DNA of 64,000 bases, taken from assembly GCA_964016885.1 (NCBI GenBank), contig OZ024750.1, forward strand, positions 45,074,001-45,138,000, given 5' to 3'. This document shows positions 18,519 through 64,000 of this stretch, one piece after another. Numbering within the stretch: position 1 is the first letter of the stretch; each line of letters begins with the position of its first letter. The notes below the pieces were generated by a model. It was not told the DNA's origin. It saw only the letters and a program-made list of their open reading frames with translations, and did not search any database. Origin of the DNA: Eledone cirrhosa. Its lineage: Eukaryota. A program made the position numbers and the translations under genes.

Positions 18519-18780
18519 TATAATAAAATAACAGGAGGCTGGACTTGTGTAAATCCTTGAAAGGTTTATAAGGTTATAATAAACCTTTCAAGGATTTACA
18601 CAAGTCCAGCCTCCTGTTATTTTATTATAATAATTAACTCCGTACTCGCACCACCAACTACACAAACGAAAACGGTTGAGCTGCTTTACGTTGAGTACTC
18701 TCCATATTATTACATCAAGATTGACCATACGGAATGACCAACTCTAACCAGTGGTGAACCTTCACACCTAAATAAATAAA
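18519..18780. mobile_element. Fold-back element in (TA)n: perfect 51-bp inverted arms plus a ~150-bp one-sided tail (probable PLE end)
   Basis: 18519-18569 is the reverse complement of 18579-18629; (TA)n on both sides. Confidence 0.6.
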
Positions 18781-18809
18781 TATATATATATATATATATA
18801 TATATATAG

Positions 18810-19042
18810 AAGTTGTTACAGAACAGTTAATTCACCATACCGAGAACAATTGTTTCACCTTAGCAGATCCTCGTAATGGACATGATTATACGTATAACCA
18901 TGTCCATTACGAGCTGAGGATCCGCTAAGGTGAAACAATTGATCTCGGTATGGTAAACTAACTGTTCTGTAACCACTTATACCTACTCGTCCCATGGACT
19001 GAGTGCTCTACCACTACGGATATTACCTTCCAATGTACTACC
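18810..19042. mobile_element. Fold-back PLE end: ~80-bp arms containing a hammerhead, plus a one-sided tail
   Basis: Arms 18810-18890 and 18893-18978; the tail resembles 20180-20248. Confidence 0.7.
18910..18947 (+). ncRNA. Minimal type I hammerhead ribozyme (mutated)
   Basis: CGAG-CTGAGGA-TCCGCTAAGGT-GAAAC-AATT-G(A)T-CTCG. The inverted arm preserves GAAACAATTGTTCTCG (palindromic stem III, GUU site) but has lost CTGAG. Confidence 0.65.
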
Positions 19043-19190
19043 TCTCTCTCTCTATCACTCTCTCTCTCTCTCTCTCTCTCTCTCTCTCTCTCTCTCTCTC
19101 TCTCTCTCTCTCTCTCTCTCTCCCCCGCTCTCTCTCTCTCTCTCTCTCTCTCTCTCTCTCTTTTATATATATATATATATATATATATAT

Positions 19191-19278
19191 AAACAAAGAG
19201 GGTCTAGTAAGTTACCAGGTGCACCATAATGCAGCAGAGTACTCAATACTCAGCCGTCGGGTTCCTGATTCTTTTCAT
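19191..19278. mobile_element. PLE terminal relic (family X): long tail on the minus strand fused to the short end on the plus strand
   Basis: 19191-19247 is the reverse complement of the 20395-20450 tail; 19249-19278 matches 20336-20365. Confidence 0.6.
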
Positions 19279-59722: not shown

Positions 59723-62700
59723 TAACATTATTCTAGAATTTAATTTAATTTAAATGTTAGTTAACCTATAAATTTAATTTAATTAATATTTTATTACAGA
59801 TGAGAAAATATTATGTAATCATTAATTTTGAAAAACCTTTAAATATTACTAATATATATTCAGTAATTTAATTTATAGATTAATTTTAACTTATTTTAAC
59901 CTTTTATTATAATTTTTTAATTTAGTTTAACCTTTTATTATAAAATTTTTTTTATTATAATTCTTTTACAGATAAAATATAACAAAATAATATCATGTAT
60001 CCTATGACGGAGAAAGAATTTTTAGTATTATTGACCTAATTAATATACATTTTGGAAATATATTTATTATTTGGTTTTAGCTTTAATCAACCTAAAACTT
60101 TAATTTTAATTTTAATTTGCTTAAAATTAGTATCCTTGTACAGACGAATTGCAGAATTTCATGTAATCATAGAATGGGAGGTGTTTTTGGATATATACCT
60201 AGTTAATATATTCTGTGCAAATTTTTTGGAAAAGATATGTATATCTATATGTATATGTATATGTGTGTATTGTATGTGTATCTGTATGTATATTTATGTG
60301 ACTATATATGTATGTACGTGTGTATATATGTGTATATATATATATATATATGTGTATGTATATGTATATGTATGTGTATGTGTATGTATATGTATGTGTA
60401 TGCGTATTAATTTTGATTTTTATTTGCATATAATTATATTATGCTATTGATGAAATACAATATCTGCTTTATGTATTGTATACCTAATTAACATATACTA
60501 ATTAACATATACTATTGAAATAAATATATAATTTTTAACTTAGTTTACATATAATTTATATGCTACTACCGATGTAATACTTTATTTTATTTTTATTTGG
60601 GTTTCTTTTCCCTATTATTAACTTTAATTTAGTTATAATGTAATTAATAATCTACTACTGTTTGACTTCATAATTCTGCTTCAAATATTATAAACCTAAC
60701 TAATTTACACCTTGGAAATCAATATGTTGACTATCTTTGGTTTAGTTGACATATGATTAATGGTATACTTTTTTATTTTGTGATGCATAGATTTCGTATT
60801 TCCTAGCATTGAAAATATGTAAGAACATACATTGAATTAAGATATGGAAAATATTATAGGTTTCTTGAAACATATATTTACTTTGATCCCCTTCTCCAAA
60901 CCCCCCCCTTTCCCCCATACTATTATCATCTGTTTTTGTAAGTGTATATGTATGAATATATGGGTAGATGGGTGTCTATATAGTTTTTTTTTTTTTTTTT
61001 TTTTTTTTTTTTGGTATTTATTTCTAGATATAAAAATACATATATGAGCATGTAAATATGAATGTAAGATTGAGTGTGTATATATGATTGTACATACATA
61101 TGTATGTATATGTATGTATATATATGTATTATATATGTACGTGTATGTGAATGTGTGGTATATATATGTGTAGGTATATGTATATATGTGTGCGTATGTG
61201 TATGCTTGTATATAGGAATATATATGTGTGTATATATGTATATATGTATATGCGTGTTTGCATGTATGTGTACATGGGTTCTGTATATATTTGTATGTCT
61301 CTCTATTTATATGTTTATCTTCGTATCTATGTGATATATGTGTGTGTGTGTGCATGTATGCATATGTATGTGTTTGTGTGTGTTTGTATGTGTGTGTGTA
61401 TATATATGTATGTATTTGCGCACACTCACATACACATATATATATATATATATATATATATATGTGAGTGTGTATGTGTGTCTGTATATGTGTGCGTGTG
61501 TATATATGTGTATATATATATATATATGTGTATGTATGTGTATGTGTGTGTATATAGATATATATGTATATATATATATGTATATATATATATATGTGTA
61601 TATAGGTGTCTATGTGTGAATATATGTCTTTATTCGTATGTGTGTATTTATATATGTTTATATTTAGGTGTATGTATGTATGTGTATGTATGTATGTATA
61701 TGTATGTGTATGTATGTATATGTGTATATGTGTGTATATATATGTATATATATATATATATATATATATTATTCTTTATTATTATTGTAATATAACTTAT
61801 GTGTATATGTGTATAAGTGAGGTTGTGTATGTATATATACTATGTGTATATATAAGGGTAATGAAATGTATATATATATATATATATATATATATATGTG
61901 CATGTCTGTATTTTATGTGTGTGTGTATATATATATATATGTGTATGTGTGTATGTGTGTATGTATATATGCATATATGTGTACGTGTGCGTATGTTTAT
62001 ATATATATGTATATATATATATATATATATATATATATATATATCTGGATGTTTGTATGTGTTTTCATGGTGGTATGAGTGTGGGATATATATGTTTATG
62101 TATAAGTATATGTATGTGTATGTATATATATGTGAGTCTATGTGTGTGTGTGTATATATATGTATATATATATATATATATATATATATATATATATATG
62201 TGTATGTGTGTATGTGTTGCGCGTGTGTGTGTCCGTATTTTTATCTTTTTATATGTGTATGTGTATGTTCGTGTAAATGTATGTGTGTGTAGGACAGTAT
62301 AGGTATGTGTGTATGTATGTATGTGTAGATATCTCTATGTGCGCGTACATGTACGTATGTGTATGTATATCTGTATGCGTTTGTACATTATATTATGTAA
62401 TATATTTTATTGTTTTTATTTTTTTATTTTTCATAATTTATAGATACATTTATATTAGGCTGTCTGGTCTGACAACCTAATACTGACCCCTCCCCCCCCT
62501 CCCACCTAATTTCTGTATCTTGATCTTGAAATGTGTGTACCAGTGTGTTTATGTGAGTGACTTAATTTCTATTTGCTTATGATTTTATATCCACATATAT
62601 AAATGTGAGTGGGGGGTGTGTGTGTGTTTGTGTGTTCGTGGTTATGTGTATATTTATATATATACGCACATGTATGTGTGATTATACTGATATGTGTGAG

Positions 62701-62969
62701 TATGAAAAAAATATATTTATATGCTTGACTACATAAGTATCATTGCGTATCTTATCAGCGCATTAAGCTTACAGAGATATTAACCTTGAAATTTTTTATT
62801 TGCATCCATCTTTTTAGTATGCACATACATATTATACACACATTATTGTAAAATGTGTGTAGGGTTTTACATGTATATACACACACCAAACTGTTTTTTA
62901 ACCCTTTGTGTTTTCATTGGTCAATTTTGAACTGATATTTTGAATTGTTGTTATTATCAATAAATATAC

Positions 62970-63124
62970 TTCATTATTTCTGAAGACGGCGTATATATGA
63001 GTTAGGTATGTATATTTAATCTTGATAATTTGTATAATTTTGTATAATTTTGTACATAGATCTGTTAAATATGCATACCAATTATAGCACATATATGCCC
63101 TAGAAACGATCGTTAAATAGTGAA
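62970..63124 (+). ncRNA. Type I hammerhead ribozyme with extended stem II (copy 4)
   Basis: Same sequence as 56781-56935. Confidence 0.8.
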
Positions 63125-64000
63125 CTTTTTTTGTTTAATATAAGGAATTGTTTGTTCATTATTTGTTTAATATTTTATATATATATATATATATATATAT
63201 ACACACACACACACATATATATACATACACATACATCCAGATACACACACACATACACACACACACACACACACATATATATATATACACACATATATAT
63301 ATATATATATATATATATATATATACACACACACACACACACACACACACACCCCCACACATACATACACACACACATATATATATACATACACACATAC
63401 AAACATACACACACACACACACACACATATATATACACACATACACACACATATATATACACACACACACACACACATGCATATATATATATATATACAC
63501 ATACGCATACATCCAGATACCCACATACATACACACACACACACACACACGCACACACAATACATACATCCACATGCACACACATACTCACACACACACA
63601 CACACACATACATACACCCACACACAGAGAAATGGCCTTCAAATATATATATATATATATATACATACAGACACATATATTTTTTCCATAATATAAGAAG
63701 TTGGGGCAGTGAAATTAAAATAATTCTGTGTGCGCATATATATATAGATATACGTGTGTGCACGTGCAGGGTTTAACATGGATGTGTTGGTCACACAAAG
63801 GCATGGTCTGTCAATGAATAAACCTGATTCTACAGAATTGGTCTCTGGTCTTTAATAGTAGTGATTCCGTGCGTATGTGTGTTTATATTTTATATATATA
63901 TATATATATATATATATATATATGTGTGTGTGTGTATGTGTATATATATGTGTGTGTGTGTGTATGTGTGTATGTATATGTATGTGTGTGTGTATGTATG

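Follow-up and report, generated by a model that had tools for sequence, protein, structure and literature searches.

Penelope-like insertions with one short and one long end, and a duplicated TA-box and hairpin module, in Eledone cirrhosa

In LINE-1 twin priming, both target strands prime complementary DNA (cDNA) on the RNA, and an inverted 5′ part results. Inverted insertions are also a feature of Penelope-like elements that carry an endonuclease (EN+). For these, published descriptions give an inverted copy and a 'tail' confined to one of the ends (PMC8557442, PMC3846280), with a tail length of 30–40 bp; how the inverted units and the one-sided tail arise is called an open question in PMC8557442. 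For PAc (Poseidon, Anolis) it was reported in vitro that both target strands are cut and extended and that two internal start sites of the reverse transcriptase (RT) bound the tail; the steps after initiation are left unvalidated there (PMC11167929). We analyse 64,000 nucleotides (nt) of the Eledone cirrhosa assembly GCA_964016885.1 (contig OZ024750.1, positions 45,074,001 to 45,138,000, forward strand), termed the window, in which ten paired Penelope-like insertions, one of them a giant element, combine one short (S) and one long (L) 3′ end.

The insertions are real and their two-end geometry is already known; the part that seems new is a duplicated module, made of a TA box and a hairpin, that predicts both ends. 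LINE-1 twin priming has no fixed second site and gives arms without overlap, whereas here both sites are fixed and arms can overlap by up to 10 kb. The canonical EN+ unit (PMC8557442, PMC3846280, PMC2377424) shares with the window elements partial tandems, pseudo-long terminal repeats (pseudo-LTRs), an adjacent inverted and 5′-truncated copy, a hammerhead in the pseudo-LTR, a one-sided tail and palindromes at the inverted junction. It differs in that the tail is 60–161 nt here against 30–40, many insertions here are reduced to their two ends, and the TA-box/hairpin module found at both ends here is not mentioned in the available text of those papers. PAc resembles the window elements in its upstream hammerhead and its two tail-bounding sites (PMC11167929); its sites, however, are found inside the open reading frame (ORF), in a stem-loop rich in AC, and have no homology to the target, whereas the ends in the window are located 5′ of the ATG, with 2–5 nt of TA common to element and target. 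Pairing of the two sites within one insertion is unreported in the available text on PAc, whose start site does not differ between strands; that in itself gives no reason to expect strict pairing. Double-ended priming from two defined sites, which an initial annotation of the window had proposed, is not a new idea, since two internal RT start sites have been shown in vitro for PAc (PMC11167929). Long tails, pairing counts and the duplicated module were not found in literature listings, and subscription papers may describe longer tails.

One short and one long end in each pair

The window has 29% G+C and about 30% simple repeat. Its largest insertion is a giant Penelope element of 20.6 kb (42578–63178), consisting of two partial tandems of a 6.19-kb unit that meet head to head at 53019:

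42578–53018, minus strand: left arm of the giant, a partial tandem of about 1.7 units; its outer end, 42578, is the long end (equivalent to 57126)
53020–63178, plus strand: right arm of the giant, a partial tandem; its outer end, 63178, is the short end (equivalent to 56989)
56990–57126, plus strand: the tail of 137 nt between the short and the long end

The left end of the giant thus corresponds to unit position 57126 and the right end to 56989, a difference of exactly 137 nt, and (TA)n is reached at both ends with 3 nt common to element and target. At 99.5–99.9% identity, the arms show few differences other than in repeat lengths; the shared segment, present in four copies, varies by 3 substitutions and by repeat-length changes, and the 2,222-nt stretch that was compared is identical between the arms. 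Because the copies are nearly identical, the insertion is judged to be very young. At the centre lies a natural A/T palindrome (A7/T6), followed by 4 nt compatible with fold-back copying, and the starts of the 10-kb arms are 135 nt apart. Together with the giant, the following insertions make up the 14 sites recognised:

9073–9283: pair U, a putative tenth pair, whose two arms would be continuous; short arm on the minus strand, with an intact hammerhead core (cut at 9130), and tail-only long arm on the plus strand, with hairpin 9200–9222
11627–11722: pair of family Y; 41-nt short arm (minus strand) joined to a tail-only long arm (plus strand); only the two ends
18523 to about 18770: pair Z; clean fold-back with an 11-nt loop; hairpin 18637–18699; no visible hammerhead core
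18810–19041: pair W; perfect fold-back at 18892/18893; hammerhead cut at 18943; hairpin from 18985 (1-nt bulge)
19192–19277: pair of family X; tail-only long arm (minus strand), 2-nt microhomology join, 29-nt short arm (plus strand); only the two ends
20257–20449: pair of family X; fold-back; tail of 83 nt; 3′ half only of a hammerhead, cut at 20346
32998–34276: pair V; long arm on the minus strand (33402–32998, hairpin 33155–33119) and short arm on the plus strand; hammerhead cut at 34234
41277–41422: pair of family X; arms overlapping by about 16 nt; hairpin 41349–41375; tail of 79 nt
41519–41776: pair of family Y; fold-back with a 1-nt loop at 41603; hammerhead-like fold with a non-canonical core; tail of about 90 nt
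160–213, minus strand: unpaired short arm, family X
20141–20248, plus strand: unpaired long arm, W-like
22421–22541, plus strand: unpaired long arm, family Y; hairpin 22459–22506
36407–36424, minus strand: unpaired short-end remnant of about 20 nt, family Y (weak)

The initial annotation had described such insertions as inverted pairs, which holds for 10 of the 14 sites; the other four are unpaired single arms. Each of the ten pairs, from about 90 bp to 20.6 kb, consists of one short and one long end, including the giant and all six fold-backs that had been named as such. Tails measure about 60 nt in W, 79–83 in X, about 90 in Y, 137 in the giant, about 140–150 in Z and 161 in V, in agreement with the 60–160 nt (137 in the giant) by which the opposite arm was said to run on. 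The position of the short end is constant within families, as had been claimed: it aligns within 0–2 nt in 4/4 copies of X and 3/3 of Y. The two copies said to be nothing but two joined ends (11627–11722 and 19192–19277) are confirmed. Microhomology of TA to both cut strands had also been suggested. Every short end shares 2–5 nt of TA with its target. Of the 10 long ends of pairs, 3 do not adjoin (TA)n but a (CT)n or (CA)n run or the truncated copy of a dispersed repeat.

Four pairs are clean fold-backs with a loop of 0–11 nt. Four pairs show at most a small overlap of their arms, with a long arm that begins at or inside the first hairpin described below, from which it follows that neither arm was copied from the other. 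Of six offset pairs, five have the greater truncation on the long arm (small numbers); in V the short arm reaches about 650 nt further 5′ than the long arm. Arm identity in the small pairs is 82–97%. U is known from a single copy, as is the long end of Z.

A census of local inverted repeats in masked sequence (positions 1–42577) returned 18 matches against 0–3 in 10 shuffles, and none of the 18 joins two short or two long ends, which is the result that the proposed rule of one short and one long end calls for. Two arms with the same end necessarily overlap there, and the census would therefore detect a symmetric pair whose arms reach about 20 nt. Five matches are short-plus-long fold-backs, six are opposed copies of a SINE-like (short interspersed element-like) dispersed repeat, four lie at chance score, one links two separate X insertions, and two are (TA)n-centred symmetric duplications without an element end motif. 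Under an independent 50:50 choice of ends, ten mixed pairs out of ten have p of about 0.001.

The long end recurs outside the window. With the best contig set mapped on 56030–60290, summed contig depth was 238k–339k over 56745–57173 against 16k upstream and 3k downstream, and in two contig sets from one sample this interval stood at 10–100 times the neighbouring bins. This excess implies that end-only mini copies far outnumber ORF copies in the giant's family; the 5′ limit of the mini copies lies near the 5′ edge of the hammerhead. From a run with the same species label, 674 raw reads pass into (TA)n precisely at 57126, and a contig from a second organism terminates at the same position. A 2:1 depth ratio upstream of and within the tail (478k at 56931; 232–246k at 57003 and 57064) was not used, other tail positions having 53–72k.

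A duplicated hairpin module

Two results go beyond the initial annotation, namely the tenth pair at 9073–9283 and a duplicated hairpin marking both ends. The module consists of a TA box followed by a bulged hairpin with the order RCTC, upper stem, loop, upper stem, 2-nt pyrimidine bulge, GAGY and RCT. Its two copies in the giant are:

56994–57077, plus strand: hairpin 1, beginning 4 nt after the short end
57132–57254, plus strand: hairpin 2, beginning 5 nt after the long end and just upstream of the ATG

The hairpin starts are thus 138 nt apart, against a tail of 137 nt. All seven window ends with a known continuation and a located hairpin lie 3–7 nt before RCTC, and the outer G-C pair is replaced by A-T in five window families. 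On the strength of their sequences, families X, Y, Z, W, V and U would work like the giant through this common hairpin module, which does not imply membership of the Hydra clade to which the giant is compared below. One more relaxed call of the motif, at 38460–38346 (minus strand), stands outside the recognised arms and may be due to chance.

Relatives were collected by a protein-alignment scan, in which the best 80 of 506 yielded 77 loci in 59 families at 80% identity. The strict 3′ part of the motif occurs in 38 of the 47 loci with enough upstream sequence, in at least two copies in 19, compared with 4 matches in 166,506 nt of ORF as a control. In all, 75 distinct hairpins were called in 61 of the 77 loci, covering 45/59 families, 22 of which have two copies within 200 nt; calls number 110 on the ORF strand and 4 on the opposite strand. 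The upper stem was left out of the calling, and the pairing counts that follow are of sequences and not of independent events. With the 2-nt bulge, the first upper-stem pair forms in 72/75 hairpins (44 C-G, 28 T-A) as against 2, 2, 6 and 21 at other offsets, and pairs 2 and 3 form in 51/75 and 54/75 as against 20–41, which suggests compensatory pairing of the stem across related families. A TAT/ATA box lies no more than 11 nt upstream in 60/75 (peak 6–8 nt) versus 20–26/75 in three control windows.

The order of parts in the relatives is fixed as hammerhead, hairpin 1, hairpin 2, ATG. Of 51 hammerhead cores, 37 have a hairpin no more than 200 nt away, and in 35 of these 33–56 nt separate the core from hairpin 1. 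The two hairpins are spaced by 55–83 nt (25 distinct pairs), and the ATG lies 20–45 nt 3′ of the motif. Where related loci retain a (TA)n junction, it falls 2–11 nt before a hairpin start in 8/8 cases: before the second hairpin in L025, L053, L063 and L064, before the first in L028, L047 and L049, and unassigned in L073. These eight remain from 63 rows after 55 were dropped, namely 52 from L013 and 1 from L028 (simple repeats) and those of L002 and L021 (8-nt runs inside both copies). The motif has left traces in the literature: the supplement of PMC8557442 contains two exact forms of its 3′ part in three occurrences, without comment in the available text, in a text comparison in which line breaks can hide matches. 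One of these occurrences is the same hairpin, close to where a Hydra consensus ends (PMC8557442).

Priming at the two modules and its alternatives

We consider it somewhat more likely than not that reverse transcription is primed at both modules, with one cut strand of the target serving at each. The elements that insert are endonuclease-bearing Penelope-like elements, the autonomous one Hydra-clade-like, with the observed pseudo-LTR order of hammerhead, module 1 (short TA box and bulged hairpin), module 2 (the same) and ATG. The protein would cut both strands of a (TA)n tract, as PAc suggests (PMC11167929), and would hold the RNA via both hairpins; each cut end would then anneal by 2–5 nt of TA to the box before one hairpin and prime cDNA. 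Joining of the two same-sense cDNAs at their 3′ ends would produce a head-to-head insertion, short at the module 1 end and long at the module 2 end. With its ends at module 1 and module 2, the tail would equal the module spacing (138 versus 137 nt in the giant). In the four pairs with a long arm beginning at hairpin 1 or within it, the cDNA from the long site looks as if it had stalled at an occupied first module, and priming in the upstream pseudo-LTR, near the RNA 5′ end, would yield the abundant mini pairs of 90–300 bp. Of the two defined RNA initiation sites that had been proposed, the fixed ends, the ten mixed pairs and the 674 reads at 57126 bear out the definition; priming on the RNA at both is what we infer from them.

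A stronger form, in which the duplicated module is a cis-acting RNA element that programs obligatory double-ended priming, one complex holding both hairpins of one RNA with one strand at each, is offered only tentatively. If true, tail length would be module spacing, both insertion ends would be encoded in the RNA, and target-primed reverse transcription would here exist in a two-site, position-programmable form. In either form, a covarying module duplicated at a fixed distance from both ends makes tail formation experimentally testable, the window provides an intact and very young ORF together with its natural RNA sequence, and the motif offers a means of delimiting and classifying elements of Hydra type as well as their numerous short remnants.

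Several observations weigh against priming at both modules. Self-priming explains the four clean fold-backs and the palindromic centre of the giant simply, 4 of the 14 sites are unpaired, and the window module is intact in only 8/13 arms scanned (from all seven families). In PAc the start site is equal between strands and not homologous to the cut DNA (PMC11167929), and for the Hydra clade the proposal of end priming is drawn from sequence. The short end appears in reads only indirectly, as diverged sequence up to it (loose ends at 56960/56964, truncated to 30 letters). The raw reads come from reduced-representation sequencing, and the 674 at the long end are thus a count of reads and not of loci. 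Outside the window, 4 of the 8 junctions stand before hairpins that do not match the strict pattern and were identified visually, no locus contains both outer ends of one insertion, and a 5′ junction to (TA)n at the module in L031, L040 and L013 hints at a role at the DNA level. Pairs of G-U and A-C number 12 and 8, which does not establish that the hairpin acts as RNA, and fold z-scores are -0.7 to -2.8.

The best-surviving alternative, though an unlikely one, is snap-back, in which a single cDNA from the long site folds back and is copied, and at module 1 the copy is either cut or switches to the other end of the target. One long and one short end then arise by construction. Self-priming has been proposed (PMC3846280), as has endonuclease-mediated resolution of the tail (PMC8557442), and the four clean fold-backs and the A7/T6 centre of the giant with its 4 nt fit fold-back copying; they are equally compatible with two cDNAs that both extend to the same 5′ terminus of the RNA. 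Non-overlapping pairs would be later deletions of the palindrome centre, and here snap-back needs separate one-sided deletions in five pairs, four of which end at or in hairpin 1, and a loss of about 650 nt in V. It also leaves the same module at the same distance from both ends unexplained, and in PAc both tail borders are RT start sites (PMC11167929).

Less probable still is a module that works as DNA, the endonuclease recognising an inverted repeat or extruded hairpin and cutting the DNA of the element itself at the TA box; the ends would then be cleavage or self-insertion sites. PAc nicks its own ORF–pseudo-LTR junction, and tail-dependent recognition by the Penelope endonuclease is cited in the same paper (PMC11167929). 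Moreover, (TA)n stands directly before the module in L031 (973–989), L040 (653–664), L013 (951–965), L018 (2994–3020) and L005 (454–472), as 5′ junctions or inside tandems, and the TA boxes may have a second role, as targets or as sites of joining. A covarying stem with a variable loop and a fixed bulge is, however, a single-strand structure and not a duplex motif, and the motif is strand-specific (110 versus 4).

That start sites are used independently at each end, the perfect pairing being small-sample luck or a selective loss of symmetric pairs, we rate as distinctly improbable. It draws on the equal use of start sites by both strands in PAc (PMC11167929) and on the sample, just ten pairs, in which U and the long end of Z are each single-copy. 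An unbiased census able to detect symmetric pairs found none, however, and near-perfect 10-kb palindromes persist here, so that a loss of such pairs is not obvious. Finally, fold-back artefacts of the assembly or of the reads in DNA rich in (TA)n, which the near-identity of the giant's arms (differing almost only in repeat lengths) might suggest, are hardly credible, since the inversion ends exactly at the element termini with a 137-nt tail difference and flanks that are not mirror images, the arms of the small pairs are only 82–97% identical, and the same end occurs in independent reads and a second organism.

Ribozymes, coding capacity and neighbouring sequence

The ribozyme and the candidate intron of the giant, and its ORF, are as follows:

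56781–56935, plus strand: predicted type I hammerhead, from core motifs and a predicted fold with stems I–III; cleavage predicted after 56925
56817–56898, plus strand: candidate 82-nt GT-AG intron in hammerhead loop II
57281–59722, plus strand: 813-aa ORF with RT and C-terminal GIY-YIG domains and Hydra-clade motifs; identical copy at 48627–46186, minus strand

The short end had been placed about 35–65 nt downstream of the hammerhead cleavage site. This fits the distances from the predicted site in W (38 nt), V (47) and the giant (64), whereas those in X (20) and Y (24) are shorter. The ribozymes of X and Y are partial or non-canonical and Z shows no core; the strict hammerhead pattern matched only U, the others being assigned from relaxed cores and folds. 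Among the Rfam matches listed (150 of 454) there was no hammerhead or tail-hairpin family, only microRNA-type matches driven by simple repeats and below the cut-offs. Hammerhead cleavage was rejected as the origin of the ends, which lie 20–64 nt downstream of the site; the 5′ ends of arms are scattered on both sides of it. The arms of W, Y and U begin 5–20 nt upstream of stem I. Identity of the mini insertions as non-LTR retrozymes was also rejected, because these are head-to-tail tandem repeats with a type I hammerhead in each (10.64898/2026.07.22.740005, available text), whereas the minis are single head-to-head pairs.

Fourteen raw reads (3 starts) jump from 56810 to 56899, across the candidate intron. 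In Drosophila Penelope, transcription starts 46 bp before a 75-bp intron (PMC2377424), the end of which meets the hammerhead (PMC4209133). By analogy only, the candidate intron would place a start near 56770, in the bin where depth rises.

The 813-aa protein has 118 homologs and carries YRDD at 346, VY..YIG at 694–709, RWR at 37 and DKT at 115 (RWK and DKT being the consensus in 28 sequences), CxCx5C at 673, CxxC at 771 and CxH at 799. A check for CCHH found two core cysteines 8 residues apart that are not conserved in the alignment, and Pfam gave no family at E<=0.1. The giant combines a single RT and GIY-YIG ORF, pseudo-LTRs and partial tandems and an inverted 5′-truncated copy, as EN+ Penelope-like elements do; its tail is likewise at one end only, yet measures 137 nt against the described 30–40 bp. 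By its motifs and (TA)n target it is probably a Hydra-clade-like autonomous element. With the Hydra clade (PMC8557442) it shares RW[K/R], DKT, the CxCx5C linker, CxxC, CxH, the hammerhead and the (TA)n target, whereas its unit of 6.19 kb exceeds the described members, generally below 3 kb, and its N/K/T-rich linker is longer than theirs. Judged by eye, it is not of the same family as Hydra-1_Obim. The available text on the clade contains no analysis of terminal structure (PMC8557442). Residues of about 475–580 (window about 58700–59020) are N/K/T-rich, a stretch resembling the N-rich inserts of PMC3846280, and the protein is about 110 aa longer than most homologs.

For the small families X, Y, Z, W, V and U no coding match was found by tblastn with 119 proteins, which gave 3 chance-level hits, none in V. 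In the 5′ extension of V's short arm (33560–33720, plus strand) a frame resembles an endonuclease C-terminus by eye, unmatched by the 119 Hydra-type proteins, and V may belong to another clade.

Insertions are clustered end to end in shared (TA)n tracts at 18523–20449 (Z, W, X, W-like, X) and 41277–41776 (X, Y). The (TA)n-centred symmetric duplications at 31243/31372, 34357/34726 and 22081/22751 were rejected as pairs of like ends, having no hammerhead core or hairpin call; they consist of local sequence, two of them adjoin Penelope-like arms, and they are possibly products of (TA)n-primed fold-back copying. A dispersed repeat of about 190 nt, which we take to be SINE-like, occurs in about a dozen copies (1204–2630, 11723–12570, 23875–24660, 40817–41156). 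Beside the unpaired X arm at 160, a fragment of higher G+C at about 230–600, presumably LINE-like (long interspersed element-like), carries a short tandem tail at its end.

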